A stretch of DNA of 64,000 nt from Rotaria sordida (lineage: Eukaryota). The stretch spans positions 208,393 to 272,392 of the forward strand of contig CAJNOH010000087.1 in the NCBI GenBank assembly GCA_905250005.1. The letters are read 5' to 3'. This document shows positions 1,970 through 64,000 of the stretch, in pieces. The notes beneath the pieces are model-generated. The model was given only the letters and a program-made list of their open reading frames with translations. It searched no databases and was not told the origin of the DNA. Every line of letters starts with the position of its first letter. The first letter of the stretch is position 1. The translations under genes were made by a program, and so were the position numbers.

Positions 1970-4516
1970 TTACATGATATCACAAATAGCTGATGTTGGA
2001 TTCAATCGATCGTCAGTTTTATATGGTATGTAGATTTTTATTTCTTCGAGAAAAGTAAGATAATCCTTCAAACTAAGTGTTATCGTCAGTTGAGATCTAG
2101 CAATGTCCTCCTTTAGTGAAGAAAACATAGCTTGTTGGCTTGCTTGGCACATATCATAAACTTTATGCAATAACCGACCGTTCATTCCTTCGAAAGCTGG
2201 TAGAAAAATACTAAGTTCTTTATCAAGAAGAAAAGATTTGACATGATCTTTAGTCCACATATCGATACAATGTGGATATTCCCTACAATAAAAAAAACCA
2301 ATTGATTATAGTTTCATGTGATCTAATGTTGAAGTTTTCCTATAATAAGTAGAAGTGTCAGTTAATGCATAGATAGGCAACAATGGATAAAAACATACTG
2401 GTAAAACATTTTACAAAGACATTTTAAAAAATTATTCTGGTAATGGGGACTCAGCCGATTGCATTGTACGTTTAATAAGTGCCAGTACAAAAATTTCTGA
2501 GATTTATTGAATAGAAATCTCGGTGTCAATAAATGTGAATCTGAAGAATCGTTTTGTTATATTTCAGTTGACACAAATGTTACAATGGTAATGCTTTTTT
2601 TTTCATTTTCTAAGCATTGCTATGTCCTTAAAGTGTTTGTCGATGAAAAGTATAAGATAAAGTAAATTTACTAATTAAATTTCCATAATCACTAAACATC
2701 ACTATCTATACAAGTTATCAAGAAGAGTACCTCATGTCTAGAATAACAACTTTCACCCTCAAAAAAAAAAAGACTTACACAACTGGACGCGGTTCTTTAT
2801 TATTTTCAACGCTTGAATTTGTTTTTGGTGTACTATCCATTAACGAACTTGAATTGTGATGGACTTGATTTTGTTCGGCAAGTATTAAGTTTGAATTATT
2901 CATTCGAAATAGTCCTATCTGTTTCTTAAGTTCTTGATAAGCTTTATCGAAACCAAGTTTCGGAAAATCAATATAGATCAATGCTGATGTTAACACTCCA
3001 AGCCATCCATCAGCTTTGTAGCTAGTTGTCATAACTAATGGAATAATATGACATCGACGTTTAACTGCATAGCTAGCTTCCATTTCACAGAAAGGACTCT
3101 GTTTGTAAGCATCAGACATACAAACAAGTACAAATTCTGCATTTTCAATAGCTTTAGCCATAGCATCAAATGTAGCACCATGCATCAATCGAGAATCAAT
3201 CCAAACACATAATTGATCTTTCTCGAGAGAACTTAAAATACGATGACACAGTGTTTTATCACTATGTGAGTAACTTATCATGATATCATATTGTTTTTTA
3301 TCAATCATTAATGAAGAAATTGAAGAAGGTTGTTGTTGTTGTTGTTGAACTGTTTTGATTATTGTTTCTGGTTCTTTTTCTAATTTCCATATTAATGCAG
3401 TAGCTATTAGTTGTAGATCTTGTTGTGATGATGAAGTCAATGTTCGAATATGATTCATGAAAGTATCATTGTTTTTGAGAATAGTCGCAAATTCTTTGTT
3501 AAAGACTAATGCAAGAAGAATTTCAAGTGCAGGAAGTTTTGCTTTGAGTGGATTGAATTGATCTTCGAGAGCACATCGAAGAAAAAGAGAATGACCTTTT
3601 TGTTTGATTAATTCTTCTCGAATTTGATCATGTTGTGTTAATACTAAAGAGAAAAAAAATAAATGATTAGTTTCTGAATGAGTGTATTTATAAAAAAATA
3701 TTTTCTTAACTATTATTATTCCTTGGAAGAAGAAGACAACTAAAACTAACCTTTAAGACTTCGAAGACTATTGTGTAGGCGACCTTCTGTACGAATACCT
3801 CCATCAATAACATTTTTAATAAAAGTAATAAAAACCGTAGCGATTCTACTCGAATTTTGAAGTTGTTTTATATCTGCTTCTGCCATAATAACAGCCAGAA
3901 TTCGATAGGCATGTAAATGAATTTCATCATCATTATTTGATTTTCGTATAAGTACATTGATAAGATCGACTAATTGAAGACTTTTAAGATAAATAACAAG
4001 TTCACTATCCAGAGTAAAATAGAAGAGAATTTGAAGAAGTTGTTGAACAAGAGGTATACCAGCTGGATCTATTGTTACTTGATTTGATTCATTGACAGAC
4101 AGTAGAATACGTTTGATAGTATCAGAGATATGTCGACATGCATCACGTGTGCCGTCACTAGTTATTACATCGCCAAGATCCATTCGAAATAATAAGTTAG
4201 TTAGATGTAGTAAGATATTTATCATAGCTGAATTCCATTTGATATATGGTGGCCGACCAGTATAATTCTCACTAAGCCAACTATTGAACCATTTAAGATG
4301 AGTACGTCGAATTCGTTCAATTATCTCTTGACGTCGATTACCTTCATACCAGGCAATTTGATTTGGATAATGTTCAAGTACGGTAAGTTCTTCATATGAA
4401 CGAGAATTGGACTGTTCTTTAGCAATTTTTTCGAACATTTGTGTATATAAAGGAGAACAAACTTGATCAACAGATCTAGCCAACATATCTGTAAACTCTG
4501 TGTAGACATGTGACAT
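1970..4516 (-). CDS. SARM-like protein, copy A (about 647 aa): an N-terminal alpha-helical domain followed by a TIR domain and a C-terminal SAM domain. Exons 3751..4516, 2779..3643 and 1970..2282.
   Basis: ORFs 3746..4516, 2775..3458 and 1970..2260 sit on one strand. Exon 1 ends AAAG|GTTAGT (phase 1). The acceptor is ..ttctctttag at 3644-3649. The exon-2 reading frame is open upstream of its first Met, reading LTQHDQIREEL... The TIR motif is YDIMISYSHSDKTLCHRI...FVLVCMSDAYKQSPFCEMEASYA. A GTAAGT donor overlaps the TAA stop at 2773-2778. A poly-Y plus AG acceptor sits at 2283-2284, in phase with a SAM-like exon (YPHCIDMWTKDHVKSFLLDKEL...GMNGRLL). No homology search was possible. Confidence 0.7.
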
Positions 4517-5989
4517 TGTTAATAACGTTTATTAATTAAAAAAAAAAGTGTTTTAACGTGATGAAAAAAAATATGGAGTAATGTATTTTAAAAGGACATA
4601 TATGAAGTTAGATTTCTTTTCTTTTTCTTGACGACAAAGTCTATATTAGCAACATACAGAAAAAAAAAAGAAAATATTTCAACCATAATGGAACTTTTAA
4701 TGTGTCTTTCATGTTGATTCTTTTATAGAAGTTGTGAAATGACGGCAAGAAAAAAACAACTTCCCTATCAACCTTCGTACAGCGATGAATATAGAACGTA
4801 TAGAAAATAAGTAACTTTTTCTCTACAAAACAGAACAACACATTTACTATAAACAGGAGTAGATAGTTGATTCGAGTTCGAATATAACTGAAGATAAAAA
4901 AAAAACAAAGCATAAGTTAATCATCACGCTTAGCCAAAAATAACATTTAACAGCTGAAGTTTAATAATCAAAGCTATGATTCTCGTCCTCAAAATACTGG
5001 ATATAAAGTTCGACTTTACTGTTCAGATAGACGAGCATTGGTGGTAGCTTTATGGATGGCGATCGCTGTTCTTACACCATTAGTCTCGATTGTAGATGTT
5101 TCAATTATGTTCTTATGGTAAAATATATCTAATACACTTCATTGAAGTTCATCAAATATCCAAAATACTATTTAGAATCATGACAAGATTCGATGAATGT
5201 CATCAATATGCTTTTTCTCAATTCTCAGATTGTCCATTCGAGATATTTCGATACAAAGACTTCAATCTCACTTTTCTGGTACCTCACACAATGTGATACC
5301 CTCGTGTCTCCTTTGTGTAGTATCATCATTAATTTTCCTTTTTTTTTGCAGCTGTTTTATTGATTTTCAAGTCACATTCAGTTTATATTATAATTCATCC
5401 CAAGTTTATTTTTCAGAAGTGATATTTTGACTCTTAAATCTTCATTTATATTCGAACTCGTATATAGACAATTCATGATAACCATAGTTGATTACAATGT
5501 TGCTTTGTTTTGCTTCTAACAATAGGACAATTCGAAATATATATATCAGATTTTATCTAATGACGTGAATGAATATATCAATCAAATAAGTCTATTTCTA
5601 AAATAAAAATGAAGCATTACTTTCTATCTGTAATCTGATTGATAATTTATGTTTTTTACTCATAAAGTGAGCTATTGTAATCATTCAATAAAACATTGAC
5701 TTAAGAGGTTGGGATTACTATTTAGAATAGTACATTAATTTCTCTTTCATTAAAGCAACATTACTGTCTTAAGTTAAGAGAAGCAAAATTATTATATATT
5801 ATCAATGTGAGCTAATTTAAATTTCACCGTTCGAATTTTCCAGTGGTGATAGCATATTAAATTCATCTATTCGATCATATTCATGTATATTAGAGTAAAT
5901 TCTCTCTATAACAATGAAAAAAATATCTAACGACAAAACCTTTCTTGGTGTCAAATCGCTTTTCTACCGAGACTATGTTCATTTAATGA

Positions 5990-6400
5990 GTGCTAGAATG
6001 GTTTAGTTTTCTGGATCTTCGTTCTTGAGATACCGAAATTTTACTGGGTTTTTCAACAAACCAATTGTCGTTTTCGTCAAGTCATGTGAAAAATCAACTT
6101 TCGAGTTTCAACTTCCAACGTTGTACGAATAAAGTTCCTAATGGGATTAATTTATTGTGTAAGTTTTTCTTTTACACATGATGGAGAATATTGAATGTCT
6201 CAGAATAGAACACACTAGAAAAGTTACAATTTGCTCATTAAACAAATGTCATTAAGAATCTTGTTCGTGTCAAGTTTGAAGTCAAAACTCGAAAGTTAAT
6301 TGTCTACATGGTCTGAGGAAGACCACAGCTTTTTGTTGAACAACCTAGTAGAATTGTGATATCTGAAGAACAAAGGCCTGAGAAATCAAACCATTCGAGA
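5990..6400. mobile_element. MITE-like palindromic element of about 410 bp with long imperfect inverted arms.
   Basis: Left arm 5990-6120 and right arm 6265-6400 are reverse complements at about 85% identity. Compare GAATGGTTTAGTTTTCTGG..AAATTTTACTGGGTTTTTCAACAAA with the reverse complement of AAACCATTCGAG. Inner arms match too (AACTTTCGAGTTTCAACTTC versus GAAGTCAAAACTCGAAAGTT). No ORF. Confidence 0.5.
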
Positions 6401-7197: not shown

Positions 7198-9473
7198 TCA
7201 GATAAGATTACAAACAGTTGATATTGGATTCAATGAATTGTTAGCTGTGAATGGTATATAGATTTTAATTTCTTCGAGAAAAGTAAGATAGTCTTTTAAA
7301 CTGAGTATTGCATGTTGAGATCTATTAACGTCTTCTTTCAATGATAAAAACATTCCTTGTTGATTGGCTTGACACATGAAATAAGCTTGATGTAGTAATT
7401 TTCCGTTCATTCCGTCTAGGATAGGTAGAAAAGCATCAAGTTCTTTGTCAAGAAGAAACGATTTAACATGATCTTCAGTCCACATATCAATACAATGTGG
7501 GTATTTCCTACAAAAAAAAACAAAAAAAAAAGTTATTTACGTTGGCATTATTCGATCTATAGTTTTCTTATAAATTATACTTTAGATTTTTGATGAAAAT
7601 TGGAAGATAAAATAAATTTACTAATTTAATTTCAAAAATCACTAAACATCATTATCTATACAAGTTATCAAGAAGAGTACCTCATGTCTAGAATAACAAC
7701 TTTCACTCTCAAAAAAAAAAAAGACTTACAAAACTGAACATGGTTCTTCGTTATTTTCTTCACTTGGAACTATTTCCGATGTATTATCCACCAACGAACT
7801 TGAATTATGATGGACTTCATCTTGTTCAGCAAATGTTGAACTTGAATTATCAATTCGAAATAGTTCAATCTGTTTCTTAAGTTCTTGATAAGCTTTATCG
7901 AAACCAAGTTTCGGAAAATCAATATAGATCAATGCTGATGTTAACACTCCAAGCCATCCATCAGCTTTGTATTTAGGTGTCATGACTAATGAAATAATAT
8001 GGCATTGACATTTAACTGCATAACTTGCTTCCATTTCACATAAAGGATTCTGTTTGTAAGCATCAGACATACAAACAAGTACAAATTCTGCATTTTCAAT
8101 AGCTTTAGCCATAGCATCAAATGTAGCACCATGCATCAATCGAGAATCAATCCAAACACATAATTGATCTTTCTCGAGAGAACTTAAAATACGATGACAC
8201 AGTGTTTTATCACTATGTGAGTAACTTATCATGATATCATATTGTTTTTTATCAATCATTAATGAAGAAATTGAAGAAGGTTGTTGTTGTTGTTGTTGTT
8301 GTTGAACTGTTTTGATTATTGTTTCTGGTTCTTTTTCTAATTTCCATATTAATGCAGTAGCTATTAGTTGTAGATCTTGTTGTAATGATGAAGTCAATGT
8401 TCGAATATGATTCATGAAAGTATCATTGTTTTTGAGAATAGTCGCAAATTCTTTGTGAAAGACTAATGCAAGAAGAATTTCAAGTGCAGGAAGTTTTGCT
8501 TTGAGTGGATTGAATTGATCTTCAAGAGCACATCGAAGAAAAAGAGAATGACCTTCTTGTTTGATTAATTCTTCTCGAATTTGATCATGTTGTGTTAATA
8601 CTAAAGAGAAAAAAAAATAAATGATGAACTTCTGAATGAGTGTATTTATAAAATATATTTTCTTAACTATTATTATTCCTTGGAAGAAGAAGAAAACTAA
8701 AACTAACCTTTAAGACTTCGAAGACTATTGTGTAAACGAGCTACATAAGGAACACCACCATCAATAGCTTTCTTAATAAAAGTGATAAAAACAATAGTAA
8801 TTCTATTTGAAATTTGCAGTTGTTTTATATCTGCTTCTGTCATAATAACAGCCAGAATTCGATAGGCTTGTAAATGAATTTCATCATCATTATTTGATTT
8901 TCGTATAAGTACATTCATAAGATCGATTAATTGAAGACTTTTAAGATAAATAACAAGTTTACTATCCAAAGTAAAATAGAAAAGAATCAAAAGAAGTTCT
9001 CGAACAAGAGGTAGAACAGCTGGATCAATGGTTGTTGGATTCGATTTACTAATGTTCAATAAAATACGTTTGATAGTATTAGTGATTTGTTGAAACGCAT
9101 GACGTGTATCATTGCTAGTAATAACATCATCGAGATCCATTCGAAAGAATAAGTTAGTTGCATGCAACATAATATCATTCATAACTGAACTCCATTTAAT
9201 ATATGGTGGTAAACCAGTATATTGCTTACTTAACCAACTATTGAACCATTTAAGATGAGTACGTCGAATTCGTTCAATTATCTCTTCGCGTTTATTTCCT
9301 TTATACCATGTGATCTCATTTGGATAATACATGAGTATAGTACGTTGTTCATTTGAAAGATAATGAGGCTCTTCTCTGGCTACTTTTTGAAACATTTGTG
9401 TATATAAAGAAGAACAAACTTGATCAACCGCTCGAGCAATTTCAACTGTAAACGACGTAGAATTTACAGTCAT
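7198..9473 (-). CDS. SARM-like protein, copy B, the tandem paralog of copy A (helical domain, TIR, SAM). Exons 8708..9473, 7730..8600 and 7198..7507.
   Basis: Exon and intron architecture matches copy A. The donor is AAAG|GTTAGT at 8702-8707. The TIR exon is nearly identical to copy A at nucleotide level. A GTAAGT donor overlaps the stop at 7724-7729. The acceptor before YPHCIDMWTEDHVKSFL (SAM) is present. A (CAA)n polyQ tract codes 7 Q here versus 5 in copy A. Confidence 0.7.
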
Positions 9474-10380: not shown

Positions 10381-13300
10381 TTAAAAACTTGTTGTATTTT
10401 CATCAATATTTTCATTAAAAATTTCTTTTAGAATTTTTTTTCGTTTAATCGATTCAATATATAATCGATTTTCTACTATATCAGGATGATAGGGTGGTAA
10501 TGTTTTTAAAAATTGTTCAGTTGATTTTTCTATACTTTCTATAGCTTCATCTAATTTTCCTTGACTTGAATAAACAAGTGATATATTAAAAAGTGTTATA
10601 CCAACTATTGAATGATTTTCTGGTAATGATATTGATGCAATTTCAAGACTTTTAAAATAACATTGTAATGCTTCTGAATATTGTTCTTCTCGATAATACA
10701 TTAAACCAATATTATTATAAAGTAATGCAAATGATGAATGTGTTAATGGTAAATATTCTTTTTGACATTCTAAAGCAAGTTTTAAATAATATAATGATTC
10801 ATTAGATCGACCAATTTTTAAATAAACATTTCCTAAAGTATAATAAGAAGAACCTAATGTACTAGAATTACGTGGTACAATACGTTCTTGAATTTCAATT
10901 GATTTTTTATAATTATCTATAGCTTCATTATATTTAAGTTGTGCAAGATATGCATCACCTGTATTATCATAAGTTAATGCAAGTTCACCATCATGTGATT
11001 CAGTTACTTGTTCAAGAATTTTGAAAGTACGTTGAAATGATTGAATAGCTTCAGAATATTTTTCTTGTCTTAAAAAAAGAATACCTATATTATTTGTATA
11101 ATTACTAATTGAAAGTAAATCTGGAGTATTTGTACGAAGTTGTATATTAAGTGCTTTTTGATAATATTCATGAGATTTTTCAAAATTATCTAAACGTAAA
11201 TACATTCCAGCTATATTACCATAAAGTGTAGTTAATTCTAATGTATTTGGTGAAATAAAACGAAGAAATGCATCTAATGAAAGATGATATAATTCAACAG
11301 CACGTTTATAATCATCTTGATTACGATGTGATGTTGCAAGTGCAAGACAACTAGCAGCTATTGAAGTTTGAATATTTACATCTGCTTTTAAAGTTTCATC
11401 ATTAAACATTGTTTCAACTATTTGTTCAGCTAATATGTGTTGATTCATTACAATCATTAATTTTATTAAGGTAATCAATTGAGAAAAACTTTTGATTTCC
11501 GTTCGTTTAGTCTCAAGTATTTGTTGAATTTTTTGTTGATCTTCATATTTAACTAATGTTAAATGAATATAAGGAATTTGATTTTCATTAATATTTTCTT
11601 TTTCAACTTTAATTAAACGTCCCATAATACCCATATTTAATAAAACATCATTATTATTATCAATTAAATATCGACGTGAACTTATATTAGCACATTTAAA
11701 ATGTGCTGGTATATCAATACGAATAAGAATTGGTATATAATCTTCAGTTAAAGTTGGAATTTCTTTAGCAATACGAATAGCTCGTAATTGATCTGTTGAA
11801 CCAAATAAAAATTGAGGAAATACAATGAGATCATCATTTAAAAGATTTTTTTGTAAATTATCAAGATCATCTCTTTGCATTGTTTGTCCAAGATAAACTA
11901 TTATTGAATCTTTTACGGATTCATTTTCTATTTGTTGAAATAAATCTTGAATAAATAAACGAAGTTTATATAAAATATCAGGTTCAGGAGTACGAAGAGC
12001 TTTATTTAACATCTAAAAATAAATGATTTGTTTGTTTTTTTTTTTTCATTTTTAACTTTAATTATTTATAAATAAATAAATTTACTTTTGATAAAAAACA
12101 TTGTCTTGAAAACCAATAAATTGCTTGATTTTTTTGATAATTTTTTTCAAATTCATCAATTATTTTTAATTCTTCATCATTACCATCATATTCTTGACGT
12201 GAAAAATTAATTAATTCTTGTAAATTATTTCTATTTTCATTTTTATCAAGAATTATTTCACTTAATAATTGACAATATATATAAGTTGTAGGAAGTGTAG
12301 TTGAATTTGATGACATATTTATATACATTACTAAATCACGTTTTATTTTATGTATATCTTTTGATATTTGTTCATATATATCATTGAAATTTTTATATAA
12401 ACCTTGAACTTTTAATTGTTTAAATGATGAATAATTAATTTCATTATTATTATCAGATAAAATATAAATAGTAAATATTTGTTGAAGTCCTTCAATTCTT
12501 GGAAGAATTGAATTAACAAATAAATTTGAAAGAATAAAGATAATTTTTTCATTGAATACACCATTTATAAATGCAACACAATCATCAATATCATTGAAAA
12601 TTTTTAAGAAATTAATAAGACTACGAAATTGTTTTATTATTGATTCATCAGGATATGAAGAATGTAAATAAATAAGGGTAAAATATTCAACATTACCTTT
12701 TTCTCGAGGTGCACTATCGAATAAGACTTTTGGACTTTCGATTTGTTGTTCTAATTTTAAAAAGAAAAAGAAATAATAGATATATAATAAAACATAGTGG
12801 AATTTTCTATTGCAGAGAAAGTAAGTTCAATCGATTTGTAAGAAGAACATATTACATTTTATGAAACACGATCTAAAAGGAGTTTTGAAGTATAACAGGA
12901 CAAAAATATGCATCCTCCTTCCCCAGCTGTGGCAGATGCTAGTCAAAGACTATCATAAATCGTGGCTAGAGATATGCTGAATCAAGTTTTTTTTAGCAGC
13001 GGTATCGATCTAGAGAAAACTATTCCAAAATTTATTCGTATGAAAACTAAAATAATTCATTAGCACTTGATTTTTTTATTTATTTAAGCTGCGACTAATA
13101 CTTTTTTGAATCTTCTCTCTTGAATATGAAAAAAAATATATTCCAAAATAGATAAAATAAGACAATTTTTCACCGATTAACAAGAGTAGCTCATTCAATT
13201 ATGTTAATTGAATCAAAGTATTTTAAAACGCTTATTGAGTTATCATGCTGTCTTTTATTGCTAGTGAAATTTGATCTGAATAACAAATCGTGATTTCACT

Positions 13301-34469: not shown

Positions 34470-36450
34470 TTTTTACATTTCGAACAGAAATTTTATTTTT
34501 CCTTCTGTTTTTTCGACGGTAAAATGGAATTCCGACAAAAAGAATTTCGCCATCTGAATTTGGACAACGTTGTCGAATTTCTACAATTGTGGAAATTCTT
34601 ATGGAGTTACGATAAAATTTTGTTTTTGCTGGCTATTTTATTGTCCATTTTCCATTAGAATTTGAACAATAATTTATTTAAAAAATACATATGGAAGTAT
34701 ATATAACTAGTAAGGCTTTGATTGATACAACATCAAGTGATGTGTGTGCTGTGCTATAACTATTTTTTTTCAAGTAGAGATCTTTTTATTTTTTTAAATT
34801 TTGTATTTTAATCAAAATCACATCATTATTCGATATCCTTAATATTCTTTTTGGTAACGTCTGAACAAGATTTTGTGTTTCTTTTCATTATCACACTAAA
34901 TCATCTTTTAATATCCTCGAATATCTTTGTTAGTGCATGAACTAAATCATCATTCTTCTCGTTATTTAATGCTAGTGAAAACCCGTGCATGCTGCACGAC
35001 TGTTTTTTCTCTCTGCAAAGCTTCGCATCCATGCTTTAATTTTGACCCAGTACAAACAATCAGATACCTTGCATTATATATCAAGACCTTATAATCTTAC
35101 CCTCTTGTAGCGTTACATCCTTATAGCTTTACCTCCTTGGACCCTTATACCCTTCTAGCCTTCCGGTCGCATCTTCTTATAGCTAGGGATACATTAGTGG
35201 ACTTATGACAGCAGTTGACAGTGCACAGTCGTCCGCAAGGGCTATCCTACACAGATATGCATAAGTTTTCAAGGTCTATCCTATAGGGATATACACAGCT
35301 CTTTGAAGTCTATATTACCGAGGTATCCATAAACCTTCAAGGCATATGTTATTGGAGTATCCATAAGTTCTCAAAGGCTAGTCGCCATGGCTGAGTGGTG
35401 AAGTTGTTCGACACAAAATACCAAGGTATTGCGTTCGAACCTCGGCGTCACCAAACATAGAATGACCCTAGATAAGTCACTAACGGCTATTTGTCTCGGA
35501 TTACCCGTACGATAGCACACTGACTACATTGTGACATATATAAGCTTTTATAGCTAGTATATGGTTAGTCAATGGGTATGGGTAGCTAAAATGAGCGGAG
35601 AAACTCTAAGTCACGCCAGCTTTCTGTCCAGAGCTACAGCTAGAAATAGTTGTAGGAAAAATATCGGGCTAATGAAAATGTCCTCGAACATCACCCTATA
35701 CTGAAAGGTAGCCGAAAGGTGGGGTATTCTTCTTCTTCTTCTTCTTCTCAAAGGCTATCCTAGGAATACTCCTAAGTCCTCATGGCTAATCCTATGAGAA
35801 TACGCGTAAGTCATCAAGAGCCATAATATAGATGTTTCCATTAGTGCATATGTGACAGCTACATTTCACGGTGACTTACCTGCTGACCCATTTCAAGCTC
35901 TTGAGGATTTATGAGTGTGTCCATAGCATGGGCTTTGATCACTTATGAGTCCACATTTCATAGGATAGGCCCTAAGGACTAATCCGTACTCTCATAGCAT
36001 AGGCTTTGAGGACTTATGGATATCCCATATAATAGTCATTGAGGATCCATGGGTACTTCCATAGGATAGCCTTATGGTCTTTAGCCTGAATTTTGATTGG
36101 CTAAAATAATTGACCAATGGAAGAAGGACCAGACGTGACAGTCGACATTAGTATACAGATGTAATTGATAAATATGTTGTTATATTGTCAGTGAAAAGTC
36201 GACAATAAAAAAAAATTTAAATCATGCACGTTGTCAAAATTCTAATGGAAAATGGACAAGAAAATTCTCAGCAAAAAGAAATTCTGTCCTAATTCCATAA
36301 GAATTTCGACAATTGTAGAAATTCGACAACGTTGTCCAAATTCTACTAGAATTTCGACATGTTTCAAAATTCTACTAGAATTTGGACATTGTCGAAATTC
36401 AGATGGCGAAATTCCTTTTGTCGATATTCCGTAGAACCTTTTCGACTGAT
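34470..36450. repeat. Complex nested palindrome or foldback structure of about 2 kb. Outer inverted arms of about 150-190 bp enclose a minisatellite of about 35 bp present in both orientations.
   Basis: The outer arm 34500-34650 (GGAATTCCGACAAAAAGAATTTCGCCATCTGAATTTGGACAACGTTGTCGAATTTCTACAATTG...) is the reverse complement of 36250-36430. Tandem units such as GGCTATCCTATAGGGATATACACAGCTCTTTGAAG lie in direct orientation at about 35225-35850 and in inverted orientation at 35895-36100. A tRNA-like or SINE-like GC-rich segment lies at 35385-35460. Confidence 0.6.
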
Positions 36451-37097
36451 GCTCATTTTCGATTTGTCTTGCTGCTATTCACTTAATATCTGTTTTCTTT
36501 TTTTTAAATTATATTTTCAACGTTTATTATTATTAGTCTAATCATTGATTTAATGAACAGATAATCCTGTTGTACACATTCACTATATCTGCAGCAGATC
36601 TTAATAACATATTATGTATCTCGATGAACTCAGAAAGATTGAAATTAATTATTCCCGAAAGCTAGAATTTAATCGGTTCATCGACTCAAATCTACACTCA
36701 CTATTTGTTTTTTTGAAAATATATGTGGATTTCACAAAACCAACCAAGATGGTTATATTCTTTTAGTTTTTATACAAGACGATTTACTTAATTTTGTCTT
36801 TCTATTATGATAAAGATGTCGTTAGATGCATTTTAATGAATTGTATTGACTAGGACAACAAATTATTTCAAGTGTAGAAAACAATGAAATAAAATTTTCC
36901 ACCAATATAACTATCAATAAATGTGATATAAATGAAATGAATTTTGACTTTTGCTAGAACATATAAAAGTTCATGAGAGATTCCAGATTCTCCTCAAAAT
37001 ATGTCCTACACCAAGTTAAGTAGAATTTGAAAGCTCTTTATAAGTCTTTTGTTTTTTTAGAGAATGTAGGATTCATTTTAGATTTGGAATATCAGCA

Positions 37098-37984
37098 GTG
37101 TCACATATCTAGAATCTCGGGCATGCTGGAGAAGTGTAGGGAGATGCGAGAGAAGTGCATACTAGGGCGATGCAATAGAAATGTAGGGAAATGTGAGAGA
37201 AATGTGGGGAGATGTGAGAGAAGTGTAGGGAGATGTGAGAGAAGTGTGGGGAGGTGTGGGAGAAGTGTGGGGAGATGTGGGAGACGTGTGAGGAGATGTG
37301 AGAGAAATGTGGGGACATGTGGGAGAAGTGTAGAGAGATGTTGGAGAAGTGCGGGAGATGTGGGAGGGTGTGAGTGTGGGTGGGTGTGGGTATGGGTAAA
37401 TGTGGGTGTGGGTGGGTGTGGATGCGGGGTGTGTGGGTGTAGATGCGGGTGTGTGGGTGTGGGTATGGGTGAGTGTGGGTGTGGGTGGGTGTGGATGCGG
37501 GGTGTGTGGGTGTAGATGCGGGTGTGTGGGTGTGACTGTGGATAGAGTAAAGAAACACTCACACCCACATCCTCGCATCTCTAGGCATTTCTCTCACATC
37601 TCCTGCATACTTCTCCCGTATCTCCCGCACTTCTTCCACATCTATCCATACTTCTCTTGCATCTCCCCACATTTTTCCTACACCTTCAGACACTTCTCTT
37701 GCATCTCTCACACTTCTCCCGCATCTCTCCGCACTTCTCCCACATCTCCTCACACTTCCCCACATCTCTCCACACTTCTCTCGCATTTTCCTACACTTCT
37801 CGCACATCTCCCCACACTTCTTTCACATCTCCCCACACTTCTTTCACATCTCTCCACACTTCTCTCACATCTCCACGCACTTTTCTCGCGTCGCCCTACA
37901 CTTCTCTTGCATCTCCCTAGTATGCACTTCTCTCGCATCTCCCCACACTTCTCCAGCATGCCCGAGATTCTGGATATGTGACAC
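37098..37984. repeat. Palindromic minisatellite (21-bp units GGGAGATGTGAGAGAAGTGTR) whose inverted arms flank a G-rich telomere-like core.
   Basis: The left arm GTGTCACATATCTAGAATCTCGGGCATGCTGGAGAAG... at 37098- is the reverse complement of the right arm ending ...CTCCAGCATGCCCGAGATTCTGGATATGTGACAC at 37984. Between them lie tandem 21-mers. The overlapping 140-190 aa ORFs on both strands are artefacts of these repeats. Confidence 0.7.
37370..37540 (+). repeat. Interstitial tract of degenerate (TGTGGG)n-like repeats resembling a telomeric repeat.
   Basis: The tract reads GTGTGGGTGGGTGTGGGTATGGGT...GTGTGGGTGTGGGTGGGTGTGG and so on. The G-rich strand is on + only. A higher-order repeat of about 60 bp occurs twice. 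My recollection is that TGTGGG is the bdelloid rotifer telomere unit; this is unverified. Confidence 0.5.
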
Positions 37985-38309
37985 CACTCACTTTTACTAT
38001 TGTTGGAAATTTTACTTCGTAACTCGGGTTTTTTTTACCGTGAGCCATTTAAAGTAGCTTGCATTTCTTTTCAACATTTTGCTAGACGAAAGAAGGTTGG
38101 TGTTGTGCAATAACAAGAAATGAAAGAAAAACATTGAGGTTTTTTCCTTTTCTCTGTAGTGGGACAAACGTGTCGTCCCGCACAAATCTCATCTTCTCTT
38201 CTTACTACTTTCATTCTTCGATTTTTATAAGAAGATATTCGTTGACACGCACACATAATTGTTCATTATCGTTCATATAGATATATATGTATATAGGAAA
38301 AAAATTGAT

Positions 38310-41300
38310 ATGAGTTCGACTTCATCAAGTGCTATCGATGAAAACAATGCTGCAGGACCTGTCTATCGGATTCTACCGTATTATTATATACATGTATTAG
38401 ATCAGAACACCAATATTACACGCCTCGAAAATGGTCCGAAGACTTTTATTAAGCAGGACAATGAAACGGTAACAGTCGGCCCAGAAAAAATGATCATCAT
38501 TCCGTGAGTGCCTGCATGGTAAGGCGAAAAAGTAAAATATAATTTTTTTAAAATTCTTGTAGTCCACTACATTATTGCATTGTCGAATCGCCAGTGATAC
38601 GCAATGAGGAGGGTGAAGTAGAATTCGACCAGAATGGTCAAGCGAAATTGGCCCATGCCGATATCGATATTCGTCTGACACGACCTGATCAAATCCCGTT
38701 TCCTCTCTATCCAGGAGAAATTCTTCGCCAAGTATAAAATTTTGAAAAAGTTGTTTACTCGTATTAACTCTTATTTATAGCCTGTCACTGCACTTACAGT
38801 CGTTCCAGCTAATTCAGCACTGCGATTAAAAGCTGTACTCGATTTTGAAGATTCACATAAGGAACAACGACGAGCTGGTGATGAGTGGATGTTCGAAGGT
38901 CCAGCTACATACATTCCTCGTAAAGAAGTCAATGTCGAACAACAAATTAAAGCAACTATTACAGTCAATGTCCCTAATAACAACACTAAAAAAATTTTCT
39001 TCCTTGTTCAACTCGGTTCTCAGCTATTTTACACTCGACTAAAAATACTTTTATATATGCATAATCTATGGAGTTTCCTCTTTCAAATGGTATAACAGCG
39101 GTCTTTCTCTGAAATGCAATGGCGGAGAAATCAGCGGTCTACGATAACGAACTGCTACTGTTGTTATTAGGGACAGTTTCCCTAATAACAACACTCAGCT
39201 ATTTTTTGTCCCTAGTAACAACACTTAAGCAAAATTTAAGCCAAATCAGACTTTTTAAGAGAAAAAACTTTTTTTTACGCGTTTTCTTTGAAAAACAAGC
39301 AGAGACTCCGCTGACAACTTTGTAGAGCATGTCAAACTCTATCTAAATCTAAAGGTTCATGAGAAAAAAAATTTCCTTTAATGAGATATAAAATCTAAAA
39401 GGAACATGTCTAACAGTGTCCAAAAAATAGGTGACCCTAATAACAACACCAAGCTAATTTTTGTCCCTAATAACAACACCTCCACCGAAATTGGTGTATG
39501 AGTGTGCATAAAACAAAAACTAATTTCCATTTTAATAGCTTGATGGATTGTGATCGTTTTTCACAACTTTATTTCATTTTTCATGATAGGTCAATTTTTT
39601 GTGCCTGGGGTACCCCTCAGGTATTCGAAAAAATATTTTTGTTCTCGTTTGAGTTCTCACATTTATAAATCGATAGAACTCAGTGTTCTGATTACGAATG
39701 TTATGTTATTTTTCAAAATTCATCGAGTAATAAGAAAAATCTAGACCATTCAAGACAGGCATAAAAATCAGTTTTTGGCTTATAAGACCATTATTATCCG
39801 TCTAAAACACGTTGGAAATAAGCTCATTCGACGCAGAAGTTTTTTCTCTATCAGAATGTATATAAGGCTTTAGGAAACAATTATGTTTTTCAATCAATAA
39901 TTATCGAATACCGGGTCCAATGGGTCTCTATGGTCATTTACTATGATTTTTTCCAGCTTGTGGGAATATAGTTTACTCAGGCACATCATCGAGATTTTTT
40001 TACCACAAACATAATTCAATGAGCTCTTTCTCGTAAAACTATTTTCGACTTAAAATTTAAGAATAAAAAAAAGGTCAAAAAAACACTGTTGGGGACTATA
40101 GAGCACCATTGGGCTCGGTATTCAATAATTATCGATTGAAAAACATAATTGTTTCCTAAAGCCTTATATACATTCTGATAGAGAAAAAACTTCTGCGTCG
40201 AATGAGCTTATTTCCAACGTGTTTTAGACGGATAATAATGGTCTTATAAGCCAAAAACTGATTTTTATGCCTGTCTTGAATGGTCTAGATTTTTCTTATT
40301 ACTCGATGAATTTTGAAAAATAACATAACATTCGTAATCAGAACACTGAGTTCTATCGATTTATAAATGTGAGAACTCAAACGAGAACAAAAATATTTTT
40401 TCGAATACCTGAGGGGTACCCCAGGCACAAAAAATTGACCTATCATGAAAAATGAAATAAAGTTGTGAAAAACGATCACAATCCATCAAGCTATTAAAAT
40501 GGAAATTAGTTTTTGTTTTATGCACACTCATACACCAATTTCGGTGGAGGTGTTGTTATTAGGGACAAAAATTAGCTTGGTGTTGTTATTAGGGTCACCT
40601 ATTTTTTGGACACTGTTAGACATGTTCCTTTTAGATTTTGTATCTCATTAAAGGAAATTTTTTTTCTCATGAACCTTTAGATTTAGATAGAGTTTGACAT
40701 GCTCTACAAAGTTGTCAGCGGAGTCTCTGCTTGTTTCTCAAAGAAAACGCGTGAAAAAAAGTTTTTTCTCTTAAAAAGTCTGATTTGGCTTAAATTTTGC
40801 TTAAGTGTTGTTACTAGGGACAAAAAATAGCTGAGTGTTGTTATTAGGGAAACTGTCCCTAATAACAACAGTAGCAGTTCGTTATCGTAGACCGCTGATT
40901 TCTCCGCCATTGCATTTCAGAGAAAGACCGCTGTTATACCATTTGAAAGAGGAAACTCCATAGATTATGCATATATAAAAGTATTTTCAGTCGAGTGTAA
41001 AATAGCTGAGAACCGAGTTGAACAAGGAAGAAAATTTTTTTAGTGTTATTATTAGGGACATTGACTGTATTGGTCCTAATCAAGCTATTCGACTTTGCGC
41101 CGAAAAAGAACTTATTGATCGATCAGGTCAACATCGTGTCACTGGCGAAGAGTGGTTAGTCAAAAAGACCGGTGCTTATTTGCCACTAGCCTATGTAAAT
41201 TCTCTAGTATTTTGTTTTCCTCATTACCTATCTATTTCGATTGTTTAGGAAACGATTGTATTAGTTCAAGATGCCTATGCTTTAACTGAGAAGAAAGCTC

Positions 41301-59713: not shown

Positions 59714-62416
59714 CTACAGAATATTACATAAAGCAGATTCTTCTTTTAATCTTGATTGATTGACAAGTTTTTTCAAACCACTCAAAAATCGACTATATTC
59801 ATCGAGATGAAAAAGATCTTTTCCAATCTTATTTCTCAATCGATTATATTCTTCTTCAATACGTAATGGTGAATCAATAATTAATTGTCCATAAATAATA
59901 AGTTGAGATCCATCAATAAAATTCAATGCATTTAATAAATAATCAGATAAATGATTTTGTTGAAACCAATATTTTATGTCATTACGTGTCCATTGATCAG
60001 GTAATTTAGTTGATATTGTTTGGGCATCATTTAATGAAAGAATTGATGTAAATGATGATATTAAATTAGAAAATTGTTCTCTACTTACACAATGATCACG
60101 CATTCGATGTTCATATTCATCATATTGTGCATCATCATGTGATAATAACTTCATATATGTTAGTAAAGCTCGACCAGATGATAGTTGAAGAGTAGATGGT
60201 GGTAAATGAAGCCATTGTTGTACTTCTTCACAAGTCCATTGTTCGATTGGAGAAGTAGGTATAATGTCTGATACAGTAAGATTTGATTGTAATTGTATGT
60301 CAGAAATTTCTATAATTGGATTGGTGTTTACATGTAATGATGATGTTTCAATAGTTTGAATATTAGTAATTGTGTTTGAATCAATTTCTGATTTTGATTT
60401 AAGTTTTAAATGAGATCCATGTGAATAAGCAAGCTTGTTATTATTTTGTGGTACTTCATCTCGTACAGTAATTAAACCTAAAAGAGTTTCCATAACTTCT
60501 TCATCATTTTTCTCACCTCCAAAACGAACCCATGTTGCGGAACCAGCACGAATTTCAAACCAATCTTCTGGTATATAATCTTTTCCTATATAAACAGGTA
60601 CCATACGTTTGTTACGTTTATCAGCATGAACGACTTCCCTTCGACAGCTTTTTGAACCACAATAATTTTCTGTTACAATCATTACAATAACATTACATTG
60701 AGTTATTGCTTTAGCAATTTCTTCCCAATCATCTTCATATGGTGGTGATAATTTATTAAAATCTACCCAAATATCACCTTGATAATGTTCTTGAATTTTT
60801 GTAACAAGGTTTTTACAAAATTTGGCGTCTTTATGTGAATAAGAAATCATAACTTTTATTTGATTATCATCATCATCATCATGATTATGATTATCTTCAA
60901 TTGGTTGTATATCCATTTGTATACAATCAAGATTAAAAAGAATTCCTTTAGCTGCGCGTTTCATGTCTAATTCATATTCATCATTTGATTGATTTTTTGC
61001 TCTTTGTTCAACGAATGAAAGAAATTCATTATTTAATTTTAATTTAATAGAATATTCAGATAAAAAACTAATTGACCAAAATATTGTATAAAGTGATGAA
61101 CAAATAATTGTATTAAGTACTGTTGATTCACATATGTTATTAAATAAAAGAAATTTTTCAATAAATAATTCATATATATTGTCACGTGAAATAATATAAG
61201 TAAGCAATGCATCATTAACAACTAATTTAACTAGTCCCTCTAAATATTCACAAACATTATATGGACCACAGGTAAGATCAACAGAATCAAATGCTTTCAT
61301 TGTTTGTTCAAGAATATAATCAAGAATTGTTTGAATATTAGAGACACTTTCATTTTTTAATTCCTTCGGTTCCAATAATTTTGCATAAAGAAGATAATAA
61401 GCCATACGAATATCTTTATCGTCTTCGTTATAATCAATAACTGACGATTCGGATAAATATTGTTCTTTCCATTGCTTAATACTATCAATCATTTTTAATT
61501 CATTTAGTGCTTTTACACCAATGGGATGTCGAGCTAGATTATGTAATATATTAATAATGCAAGACCATGATTCAAGAGAAATATATTTTATATGATCTCG
61601 TTCAATTGATATCCATTGTAAAATAGCATTTGGATAACCAATTTGAACAAAATAGGGAACAAATCCATAGATATCTGTCATGTTAAGAATCCATTTAAAA
61701 ATTGATGTATAGACTTGAGATTGTTGATCATTATTTAAAAAATAATTATTTATATAAGTTATAAATGCTTGTAAAAGTCGTTCGGTTGAATTATTTAATT
61801 GAAAAAATGTTGGAATATTTTTATGTGAAACAAATATTGAATAAGAAATACCTCTTCTTGTATAAAGCGATCGTGCACCAATAGAAGCAAACAAATGAAG
61901 AAAATATTCATCCATATTTGATAGAATATGTTTTTTATTAATAAGATAATTAATTGTTGAATCATTAATTAAATAAGTAAGTGATAAATCAAAATAATAA
62001 TCACATAACACTGGATATATTGCCATATTTATATACATTTGAAAACGAATTGCATCGAATAGAGCTTCTAAGAGATTAGATGGAATTATTGAAGAATATC
62101 GTTTGATAAAATGAGAAAAGGAATTTATTTCAAAATAATTAAGAGTAGACATCCGTTTCTGATTTTCATCAATTGTTCTTATATCCCATTCATCATCGAT
62201 TTTTTGCAATTGATCACGAAGATTAATTAATGGATGAGACTCGATTTTCTTCAGCATATCATCGTGAAATAGAAGAGTTTCTAGTTGATGAATACAATTA
62301 AATATTGGATCGTTGTTAGTAGTCATACTGCTCGCACGAAAACAACAAATAATCAAGTGTACGTTTTTTGTCCTTCGTTTTTTTTTCTTTCTACAAATAT
62401 GAAAGGTATATTTCAT
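59714..62416 (-). CDS. SARM-like single-exon protein with an N-terminal alpha-helical (ARM/HEAT-like) region of about 500 aa, a TIR domain and two tandem SAM domains. The likely start is MTTNNDP near 62326.
   Basis: The TIR motif reads IKVMISYSHKDAKFCKNLVTKIQEHYQGDIWVDF..VIVMIVTENYCGSKSCRREVVHA..MVPVYI. SAM1 reads IEQWTCEEVQQWLHLPP..GRALLTYM. SAM2 reads DQWTRNDIKYWFQQNHLSDYLLNALNFIDGSQLI. The first 30 codons of the listed ORF (MKYTFHICRKKKKRRTK..) look like translated A-rich leader. Confidence 0.75.
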   Translation of the reverse strand: MKYTFHICRKKKKRRTKNVHLIICCFRASSMTTNNDPIFNCIHQLETLLFHDDMLKKIESHPLINLRDQLQKIDDEWDIRTIDENQKRMSTLNYFEINSFSHFIKRYSSIIPSNLLEALFDAIRFQMYINMAIYPVLCDYYFDLSLTYLINDSTINYLINKKHILSNMDEYFLHLFASIGARSLYTRRGISYSIFVSHKNIPTFFQLNNSTERLLQAFITYINNYFLNNDQQSQVYTSIFKWILNMTDIYGFVPYFVQIGYPNAILQWISIERDHIKYISLESWSCIINILHNLARHPIGVKALNELKMIDSIKQWKEQYLSESSVIDYNEDDKDIRMAYYLLYAKLLEPKELKNESVSNIQTILDYILEQTMKAFDSVDLTCGPYNVCEYLEGLVKLVVNDALLTYIISRDNIYELFIEKFLLFNNICESTVLNTIICSSLYTIFWSISFLSEYSIKLKLNNEFLSFVEQRAKNQSNDEYELDMKRAAKGILFNLDCIQMDIQPIEDNHNHDDDDDNQIKVMISYSHKDAKFCKNLVTKIQEHYQGDIWVDFNKLSPPYEDDWEEIAKAITQCNVIVMIVTENYCGSKSCRREVVHADKRNKRMVPVYIGKDYIPEDWFEIRAGSATWVRFGGEKNDEEVMETLLGLITVRDEVPQNNNKLAYSHGSHLKLKSKSEIDSNTITNIQTIETSSLHVNTNPIIEISDIQLQSNLTVSDIIPTSPIEQWTCEEVQQWLHLPPSTLQLSSGRALLTYMKLLSHDDAQYDEYEHRMRDHCVSREQFSNLISSFTSILSLNDAQTISTKLPDQWTRNDIKYWFQQNHLSDYLLNALNFIDGSQLIIYGQLIIDSPLRIEEEYNRLRNKIGKDLFHLDEYSRFLSGLKKLVNQSRLKEESALCNIL

Positions 62417-63306: not shown

Positions 63307-64000
63307 TTAATTCGTATCAACAAAGTACAACCACTTAAAAAGGAACGATTCGTGTCGATCTTTCAATTGTCGCACACGACGTGTGCGAAAAAATTGACCA
63401 AGGCGATCGTTTTTCCTTTTAAAAAAATTATCCCAACCAAATATATCTTCATAGAAGAATGAAGAACCAAGATCAGTTGTGAACATAGTTTTTAATCTTC
63501 GTTGAATATATTTTTTAACGTAAAATTGTAAGGGCTGTTCAGAAGTGACTTTAAACAGATTATTCGCAGAAATGAAGGGACAGCGATGCACCAACCGAAG
63601 TCCTACACGGAATTTTTGTTCCAATACATGCTGTAGAGATTCTGGGAGGAGAGGAAAAAGCGGGAATAGCCACGCGAAATGCGGAAAAGTGTACGCGAAG
63701 AAACATTGACGAAGAGCTTTACGTGACATTTTGCGACCGGACTTCATCCATTTCAGTTTTCCTAGCGATCTCTGAATAAATCCTATGGTTTTATCGACTG
63801 TCGGTTTCAACGAAAGTTTATCCGTCCAAGTAAACCCTAGGTATTTGAATTCTTTGACTAACTCGATTTTATTTCCGTCTATTGTTACGTTTACTATAGG
63901 TCTTTTAACTTGTGTATGAAATAGTTGTACTACAGTTTTTGAAACATTTAACGGCTGTTTCCACTTTTTTGAGTACATAAAAACCTGATTACAAACTCGT
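63307..64000 (-). mobile_element. Non-LTR (LINE-type) retrotransposon. Only the 3' part of the reverse-transcriptase ORF is present, truncated by the window edge.
   Basis: ORF 63307..63978 (and the open frame beyond it) reads ..IDGNKIELVKEFKYLGFTWTDKLSLKPTVDK...LRQCFFAYTFPHFAWLFP. This has the KYLGV..D..L.W..H and LY..LVRP.LEY layout of the C-terminal RT or thumb region in CR1/jockey-like LINEs. Confidence 0.55.

Follow-up and report, generated by a model that had tools for sequence, protein, structure and literature searches.

A candidate foldback-like element with telomeric-hexamer sub-repeats upstream of the major vault protein gene of the bdelloid rotifer Rotaria sordida

Introduction

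How does a tract of telomere-like repeats come to lie at the centre of a palindrome, surrounded by ordinary genes? We addressed this question in a stretch of 64,000 nucleotides from Rotaria sordida (assembly GCA_905250005.1, contig CAJNOH010000087.1, positions 208,393 to 272,392; hereafter the window), in which an 887-bp inverted repeat occupies positions 37098-37984, upstream of the gene for the major vault protein (MVP). An earlier note, made from the letters alone, had described it as a hairpin-forming, palindromic 21-bp minisatellite with a telomere-like core, and had linked it to telomere-associated retroelements and to a subtelomere-like setting.

R. sordida is a bdelloid rotifer, and the bdelloid telomere repeat is (TGTGGG)n, which is present at every chromosome end in the AV20 assembly of Adineta vaga (PMC7943196, PMC8494291). 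Since the host has telomeres of this sequence, and not of an unrelated motif, the label "telomere-like" is correct. Among the transposable elements reported for A. vaga, low-copy DNA transposons with terminal inverted repeats dominate (PMC8494291), and a foldback-like insertion is on record for bdelloid gene-rich DNA (PMC2861651). We propose that the 887-bp repeat is probably an old, fixed copy of a low-copy, non-coding element of the foldback or miniature inverted-repeat transposable element (MITE) kind, whose sub-repeats embed the telomeric hexamer. In its present place the element acts as a palindromic minisatellite.

Results

The coordinates of the repeat proved exact, and its 32-nt terminus matches only at the two ends. 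This unique sequence, GTGTCACATATCYAGAATCTCGGGCATGCTGG, is found in the window only at 37098-37129 (+ strand) and 37953-37984 (- strand), with 0 matches expected by chance. The parts of the element, with notes on its relative on another contig (L023, described below), are as follows.

37091-37098, + strand: 8-nt motif ATCAGCAG, just outside the left terminus with a 1-nt overlap; it also abuts the matching end of L023
37098-37129, + strand: left terminal inverted repeat, GTGTCACATATCTAGAATCTCGGGCATGCTGG; unique sequence, with the terminal TGTCACATATCYAGAA common to L023
37127-37366, + strand: left arm, about 11 copies of the 21-bp unit on the G-rich strand; Tandem Repeats Finder (TRF) periods of 21/42/63, autocorrelation of 0.76 at lag 21
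37359-37535, + strand: degenerate telomere-like G-strand tract of 177 nt (59% G, 30% T), with 12 perfect TGTGGG
37536-37557, no strand: central unique spacer of 22 nt, CTGTGGATAGAGTAAAGAAACA, containing the 15-nt apical loop of the hairpin
37558-37572, + strand: short C-strand telomere-like piece, CTCACACCCACATCC, mirroring the last 12-15 nt of the G tract across the spacer
37573-37953, - strand: right arm, about 17 inverted 21-bp units, C-rich on the + strand and more degenerate towards the centre
37953-37984, - strand: right terminal inverted repeat, with one mismatch to the left one in the window haplotype and two in the others
37985-37989, + strand: CACTC (reverse complement GAGTG), a weak candidate for a short extension of the element on its right side; the corresponding letters in L023 are GAGAG

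The motif ATCAGCAG lies directly outside one terminus in both the window element and L023, and beyond this motif the two flanks are unrelated. Either it belongs to the true end of the element or it is a preferred target.

Within the termini, TRF reported arrays of period 21/42/63 bp at 37127-37366 and 37589-37953. The unit GGGAGATGTGAGAGAAGTGT was matched 20 times with up to 3 mismatches, 8 times on the + strand (37139-37331) and 12 times on the - strand (37585-37943). It was found nowhere else in the 64 kb, and never in 100 shuffles. All 20 matches thus lie inside the element, + then -, in agreement with the claim that 21-bp units form inverted arms. The unit reads GAGA + TGTGRG + AGAAG + TGTRGG, that is, two telomeric hexamers with the purine spacers AGA/AGAAG. 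Over their outer 226 nt (37098-37323 and 37759-37984), the arms show 87% complementarity in register; the right arm aligns in register with the left as far as ~37366, and the total arm lengths are nearly equal, 438 versus 427 nt around the 22-nt spacer. The element therefore has the layout of a foldback: long inverted arms make up most of its length, and unique 32-nt termini are followed by short tandem sub-repeats in the arms. Folded as single-stranded DNA, it is predicted to form one long hairpin with a stem of ~430 bp and an energy of -316.5 kcal/mol, compared with -132 ± 4.8 kcal/mol for shuffles (z = -38.8), and its description as hairpin-forming is borne out by this fold.

Telomeric hexamers are enriched in the arms themselves. 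Perfect TGTGGG was counted 7 times in the left arm units (37127-37358) and 6 times in the right arm units (37589-37953), with 0.4 expected from composition in either case, and 26 of the 30 TGTGGG/CCCACA hexamers of the window fall inside the element. No coding capacity was detected: the open reading frames (ORFs) of the element are translations of the repeats, and an all-six-frame search gave no homologue among 8000 candidates. The earlier note had missed the unique terminal inverted repeats and the two telomeric hexamers inside the 21-bp unit, as well as the existence of a relative elsewhere.

This relative was the only true one found when a metagenome collection was scanned with a degenerate pattern of the unit; the scan returned 92 loci, nearly all of them single chance matches. 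In L023, positions 675-820 form a 146-bp inverted repeat that carries TGTCACATATCCAGAA at both ends and the same 21-bp units inside. L023 also shares with the window element the irregular stretch that follows the first unit, and identity reaches 81-86% over 58-92 nt (E down to 7.5e-15). Every species-named match of its neighbouring gene, an NHL-repeat ORF, is from Rotaria or Adineta, so the L023 contig is of bdelloid origin. Neither the flanks of L023 nor this gene are related to those of the window. Two copies with shared unique termini, unrelated flanks and no coding capacity match the pattern of a non-autonomous element of the foldback or MITE type.

Other candidates from the same scan were rejected as relatives. 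L033 and L036 are GA-rich arrays of an 11/22-bp unit from a different element, with a superficial resemblance to the 21-bp unit, and L095 is unrelated. The arrays in L033 (1271-2525) and L036 (405-1028) are long, consist of ATGTGAGAGAGATGTGAGAGAG, and sit within another inverted-repeat element, flanked by CTGCAACACA 10-mers. Scans with the terminal 20-mer gave two chance matches in metagenome-assembled prokaryote genomes of Acidobacteriota (57% GC) and none in viral contigs, and an nhmmer profile of the four element ends detected no new copies in the sampled bdelloid loci. The gene neighbourhoods of the MVP homologues P0001 and P0003 differ from that of the window.

To follow the element among R. 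sordida assemblies, the neighbouring short-chain dehydrogenase was used for an exact look-up, which located the same locus in seven assemblies, six of them covering the site. The element was present in all six at the same position, with the same termini and flanks, in three sequence variants. In the G tract, the window haplotype carries one copy more of a 73-bp higher-order repeat than the other haplotypes do; a further variant is longer by about one 21-bp unit, and the variants also differ by a few point differences. We conclude that the element is genuine and, among the R. sordida sampled, fixed, and that it changes length by whole repeat units (73 bp, 21 bp), not by hexamers, like a minisatellite.

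The six assemblies bear on two other explanations. Palindromes and G-rich repeats assemble poorly, and the extra 73-bp copy is confined to the assembly of the window, so that a collapsed or chimeric palindrome might be suspected. The likelihood of such an artefact is negligible, however, with the same structure, termini and flanks in six separate assemblies and three variants, and with arms that are imperfect (87%) and unequal in unit number, unlike those of a chimeric fold-back. Alternatively, the repeat could be a palindromic minisatellite bound to this locus that was never mobile, its similarity to L023 being due to an old duplicated segment or to convergence of simple repeats. This would account for a repeat that has no target-site duplication, is fixed in six assemblies with variation only in repeat number, and has no other copy in the sampled DNA. 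We nevertheless consider it improbable: each end of L023 has 32 nt or more of unique, non-repetitive terminal sequence in common with the window element, correctly inverted, and one end is also bordered by the shared 8-nt motif, in a setting of unrelated flanks and neighbouring genes.

The centre of the element was then analyzed. The earlier note had reported about 170 bp of TGTGGG-type repeats in a single orientation. The 177-nt degenerate tract was confirmed, but the orientation is not single, since the 15-nt C-strand piece CTCACACCCACATCC mirrors the end of the tract. The core is therefore a very lopsided head-to-head arrangement, 177 versus 15 nt. The G tract matches the host telomeric repeat, and perfect TGTGGG occurs 11 times in 37366-37535 (1.8 expected from composition), although perfect hexamers cover only ~40% of its bases; the variants are TGGG, TATGGG, TGTGGA, TGCGGG and TGTAGA. 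When the tract was aligned to an ideal (TGTGGG)n with cheap gaps, it scored the same as shuffles. A 73-bp higher-order repeat runs through it in 2.4 copies, with an autocorrelation of 0.90 at lag 73 versus 0.66 at lag 6, which indicates a weak hexamer periodicity, and TRF also reports periods of 20-22 bp. The motif AGATGCGGG is found both in the G tract and in the arm units, and the tract fills the place that is held in the right arm by more degenerate 21-bp units. The 73-bp and ~20-bp structure, the shared AGATGCGGG and the hexamer-enriched arms fit a sub-array that diverged in place, without proving it. We lean slightly towards local growth of the centre, through slippage or unequal exchange among units in which the telomeric hexamer was already present.

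The earlier note had also stated that the structure is not a head-to-head telomere fusion. A fusion relic is indeed highly unlikely here: the tracts measure 177 and 15 nt, what lies on either side of the core belongs to a single element and is mirrored, and the gene DNA that flanks the element is colinear in all haplotypes. It is the orientation of the core itself that is head-to-head. The telomere-like centre is most probably not a former chromosome end.

While bdelloid contigs of R. sordida, R. socialis, Rotaria sp. Silwood1 and A. steineri were being sampled, the same pattern, a G-strand tract, a spacer of 15-55 nt and a C-strand tract, was met at nine other non-redundant loci.

L114 594-739: hairpin, R. 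sordida
L105 ~5907-5996: hairpin, R. socialis, present in six assemblies
L116 2490-2640: hairpin, Rotaria sp. Silwood1
L116 4540-4665: hairpin, Rotaria sp. Silwood1
L115 9560-9835: hairpin, Rotaria sp. Silwood1
L126 4853-4906: hairpin, A. steineri
L126 6641-6745: hairpin, A. steineri
L126 7004-7135: hairpin, A. steineri
L127 13806-13870: hairpin, A. steineri

With the window included, 10 pairs are head-to-head (G then C) and 0 are tail-to-tail; four further telomere-like tracts are solitary or abut gaps. Parts of the sequence are shared as well. GGGTGTGGGTGTAGATCT lies at the hairpin centres of L114 and L127 (as the reverse complement), and GTAAAGA is common to the centres in the window and in L114. 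The spacer of L105 is ~68% identical to that of the window, which is also partly similar to the spacer of L114. Many C arms, including the one in the window, end in CCCATCC or CACATCC followed by T. The module at the centre of the element is of one kind with the head-to-head telomere-like hairpins met at these other bdelloid loci.

Such hairpins recur near NHL-repeat genes in four bdelloid species, and their spacers are AT-rich. In A. steineri, the G arm of one hairpin is ~40 nt longer in L127 (6962-7059) than in L126 (7004-7060), with one assembly against two others, and such tracts are therefore length-polymorphic, like the one in the window with its 73-bp difference. The Silwood1 scaffolds L115 and L116, compared for an empty site at a hairpin, are gapped and rearranged.

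One of the A. steineri hairpins lies at a break in colinearity. In L127 (13790-13880) it begins, on a TGG seed, exactly where colinearity with L126/L128 (13780-13800) stops. L126/L128 read ...TTCTTTATGG|CTCACTTTCG..., and the junction in L127 reads ...TTCTTTATGG|GTGTGGGTGTGGG...; in full, L127 has ...TTCTTTATGG|GTGTGGGTGTGGGTGTGGG...CACCCACACCCATCC|TTTGTTT, followed by unrelated DNA in which no reverse transcriptase (RT) ORF was found. Such a sequence would be expected if telomeres had been added at a break and the ends had then been joined head-to-head. The junction is known, however, from a single short-read assembly, and it might represent a break that healed and was rejoined, a misjoin, or one edge of a large insertion.

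These observations raise a second possible origin for the core, that of a repair scar. In this scheme, the palindrome would have broken at its centre, telomerase would have extended both ends, and the capped ends would have been rejoined head-to-head. Hairpins and cruciforms are cut at their centre, and both exposed 3' ends would be the G-rich, TGTGGG-bearing strand of the arm. The join would have left a G tract, filler and a C tract, which later slippage made lopsided and degenerate. Only the origin of the centre is at issue, and the outer foldback would remain a repeat element. A core that is head-to-head and lies at the centre of symmetry would be explained, as would the hairpin of L127 on its TGG seed at the end of colinearity. 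All 10 non-redundant paired tracts run G then C, and the opposite order could not be produced by telomerase at a break; the uniform orientation is, however, also expected if all the hairpins belong to one family. A 2026 study found telomeric repeats and Athena fragments at deletion breakpoints of A. vaga and proposed transient neotelomeres that "leave scars" (PMC13564844). On the other side stand the 73-bp higher-order repeat, the 20-22-bp TRF periods and unit-like motifs of a tract with ~40% perfect hexamers, as well as its extremely unequal arms (177 versus 15 nt). The non-telomeric centres that are shared (GGGTGTGGGTGTAGATCT in L114/L127, GTAAAGA in the window and L114) fit a homologous family better than independent scars, and the L127 junction, from one short-read assembly, might be a misjoin or the edge of a large insertion. 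Taken together, a repair scar at the centre is somewhat less likely than growth in place.

The telomeric motif also raised the prospect of a telomere-associated retroelement. The element could be what remains of a Penelope-like element of the Athena/Terminon type, or a junction of one; it could also be a fusion point or former chromosome end that has become internal. TGTGGG is the true telomere motif, bdelloid subtelomeres are rich in repeats and transposable elements (PMC2861651, PMC8494291), and an ORF at the far end of the window (63307-63978) looks by eye like the tail of an RT ORF. Pfam, however, finds nothing in this ORF, and no RT, GIY-YIG or other ORF was found in or beside the element. 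Rfam detected no hammerhead ribozyme, either at the gathering threshold across the window or, within 36000-39000, at E<=1. As reasoned from PMC6431247, Athena/Terminon elements have telomeric repeats in one orientation at both ends, not G then C. The two sides of the tract mirror each other and are not unrelated DNA, both flanks are ordinary single-copy gene DNA that is colinear in all haplotypes, and there is no other telomeric cluster in the 64 kb. This explanation is highly improbable. The link to telomere-associated retroelements made in the earlier note accordingly finds no support: neither an RT ORF, within the element or adjoining it, nor a hammerhead ribozyme was found, and the orientation is unlike that of Athena/Terminon junctions. 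Nor was evidence found for the subtelomere-like setting that it had proposed; the window is gene-dense and has 4 hexamers outside the element but no second telomeric cluster, even though it holds three inverted-repeat elements within 7 kb.

The position of the element relative to MVP was described correctly. The likely MVP start codon is at 38310, so that the distance, given before as about 300 bp, measures 325 bp; the element is intergenic, and a 2-kb palindrome adjoins. Might the element, then, be a co-opted cis-element of the MVP promoter, acting as a G-quadruplex or cruciform, or a source of hairpin or small RNA? It is kept upstream of the ATG in all haplotypes, its predicted hairpin is strong, and the G tract holds two G-quadruplex-type motifs on the + strand, the sole motifs of this type in the window. 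Rfam, in contrast, gave only sub-threshold matches to generic hairpins, and the length variation among haplotypes suggests weak constraint. A regulatory or hairpin-RNA role is very unlikely.

Two other inverted-repeat elements lie close by, and the three, the telomere-hexamer element included, fall within 7 kb. The adjoining palindrome (38955-41074) has arms of 998 nt that are 98% complementary around a 124-nt loop. It corresponds to a 2106-bp foldback element at 38962-41067, with termini CAGTCAATGTCCC..., flanked by a clean duplication of TA (38960-38961 and 41068-41069). It sits at a TA within an MVP coding exon, between ...QQIKATI and IGPNQAIRL, and it is a haplotype-specific Tc1/mariner-style insertion, because other R. 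sordida assemblies carry the empty site AACTATTATTGGTCC at its position. The deposited MVP model has 795 aa in the assembly of the window versus 816 aa elsewhere. The third element, of ~1.9 kb (34526-36430), lies between the dehydrogenase gene and the 887-bp element. It has imperfect terminal repeats of ~145 nt (GGAATTCCGACAAAAAG...) and internal 29-bp and 34-bp tandem repeats, and no target-site duplication was evident at 34526-36430. Its spacing is constant across all R. sordida loci, and hence it is present in all of them.

The MVP exons downstream of the element have their best species-named match in Adineta steineri. The deposited gene model begins at an internal ATG at 38490 (MIIIP...). 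An in-frame ATG lies upstream at 38310, and the residues encoded from there resemble, as judged by eye, the conserved N-terminus of MVP, so that the annotation looks N-terminally truncated. The rest of the window is gene-dense, with genes for TIR-domain and TPR proteins, dehydrogenases, a TGF-beta-like protein, a PP1-type phosphatase, an epimerase and a GT25 glycosyltransferase. The intronless epimerase gene has an exact match in GCA_905250125.1, on the 96-kb contig CAJNOL010000893.1, and the members of its cluster are all from Rotaria sordida. On the - strand, a tandem duplication of a gene pair (2775-4516 and 7726-9473) contains in each copy a TIR-domain ORF (227/229 aa) and a 256-aa ORF. 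Pfam was run on the first copy, where the 256-aa ORF had no match; the second TIR-domain ORF is near-identical. A TPR gene is located at 10381-12012 and a 900-aa TIR-domain gene at 59714-62416. The 223-aa ORF at 63307-63978 (- strand) resembles by eye the C-terminal part of ORF2 of a retrotransposon without long terminal repeats; it had no Pfam match and no exact record in the assemblies index.

Discussion

The results presented here favour, as the probable origin of the 887-bp repeat, a dispersed non-coding element of the foldback or MITE type. The local context includes two other inverted-repeat elements within 7 kb, one of them a haplotype-specific insertion flanked by TA. The family would consist of non-autonomous DNA elements whose spread depended on a transposase acting in trans and recognising the termini or the subterminal repeats; such mobilisation is proposed here on the model of foldback elements and MITEs. 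The copy in the window would now be old and immobile.

Several observations weigh against this interpretation. No target-site duplication was found at the window element or at L023 when lengths of 2-10 bp and several candidate boundaries were considered; the flanks, ...GGAATATCAGCA / element / CACTCACTTTT, share only CA. The missing duplication could be explained by old age or by a family that makes none. Readings of the CAGTG start as hAT-like (8 bp) or Tc1/mariner-like (TA) were discarded, as the preceding AG is kept in L023 and no TA is present. The family has two known members, no transposase partner was identified, and ~0.45 Mb of other bdelloid DNA yielded no additional copy, nor, beyond L023, did the metagenome, prokaryote and viral collections. 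Among the six R. sordida assemblies there was neither presence/absence polymorphism nor an empty site. Finally, L023 is without the telomere-like centre, so that the core may be a secondary event, and the architecture of the core, together with sequence such as GGGTGTAGATG, is common to hairpins elsewhere that lack the 21-bp arms, which pure drift in place would not predict.

A broader proposal follows from the recurrence of the hairpins. Bdelloid genomes could carry a class of short head-to-head telomere-repeat hairpins, each a scar left where telomerase capped both ends of a double-strand break before they were rejoined, although at present we regard such a class as doubtful. The centre of the element would then be one such scar, formed when the palindrome broke at its tip, with telomerase finding suitable seeds on either end in the TGTGGG-bearing units. 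Were this the case, past breaks and their healing could be read from the hairpins in the genomes of animals able to survive desiccation and radiation, and palindromes based on telomeric hexamers would be built-in healing sites.

Taken alone, the foldback-like repeat is one more low-copy, non-autonomous repeat element of a bdelloid, with no shown effect on MVP. It places ~26 telomerase-seed-like hexamers, in mirror orientation, in ordinary gene-dense DNA. The architecture of its centre is that of every other paired telomere-like tract sampled, and one of these tracts is at a haplotype colinearity break. A catalogue of such hairpins could test whether the healing of breaks by telomerase leaves lasting marks in bdelloid genomes, now that neotelomeres have been proposed for Adineta vaga.

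Among known systems, the closest comparison is with foldback (FB-type) DNA transposons and MITEs with long terminal inverted repeats, such as Drosophila FB and Galileo, sea-urchin TU and plant SoFT. Like them, the element consists almost wholly of two long inverted arms, with short tandem sub-repeats inside unique termini, and is non-coding, length-variable, low-copy and apparently dispersed, with one relative found at an unrelated locus. It differs from them in having no visible target-site duplication and no autonomous partner or assigned superfamily, in a sub-repeat built from the host telomeric hexamer, and in its head-to-head telomere-like centre. To our knowledge, neither telomeric-hexamer sub-repeats nor a head-to-head telomere-like centre has been described for FB elements.

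Interstitial telomeric sequences comprise short ones, inserted during the repair of double-strand breaks, and relics of head-to-head fusion such as human 2q13. The core of the element shares with them, and with the neotelomeric repeats of A. vaga (PMC13564844), an internal, degenerate tract of the host repeat that runs G strand then C. Unlike them, it forms the middle of a repeat element, and the palindrome extends outwards into the arms of that element. Its two sides are very unequal, 177 versus 15 nt, and it has a 73-bp and ~20-bp higher-order structure. The flanks are colinear single-copy DNA and not two chromosome arms, as they would be in a fusion relic.

Athena/Terminon elements carry an RT ORF and a 3' hammerhead ribozyme followed by (ACACCC)n (PMC6431247). 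They are alike in coming from the same host group and in associating a repeat element with TGTGGG/ACACCC stretches. The element described here has neither RT nor hammerhead ribozyme, and its telomeric stretches are inverted and not uniform. It measures 0.9 kb, as opposed to the 4-40 kb of Athena/Terminon, and lies in gene-dense DNA. Foldback-like elements and interstitial telomeric repeats are each already known in bdelloids. As far as we know from the literature examined, a foldback with telomeric-hexamer units and a head-to-head centre has not been described before, nor has the uniform head-to-head orientation of such tracts across species.

A last comparison is offered by the telomere-bearing transposons of ciliates, Oxytricha TBE1 and Tetrahymena Tel-1, whose inverted repeats contain the host telomeric repeat. 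These transposons carry the telomeric repeats at their extreme tips, in the orientation found on a free linear end. In the element of R. sordida, by contrast, they are internal, in the subterminal units and at the centre, and they face inwards, G strand first.

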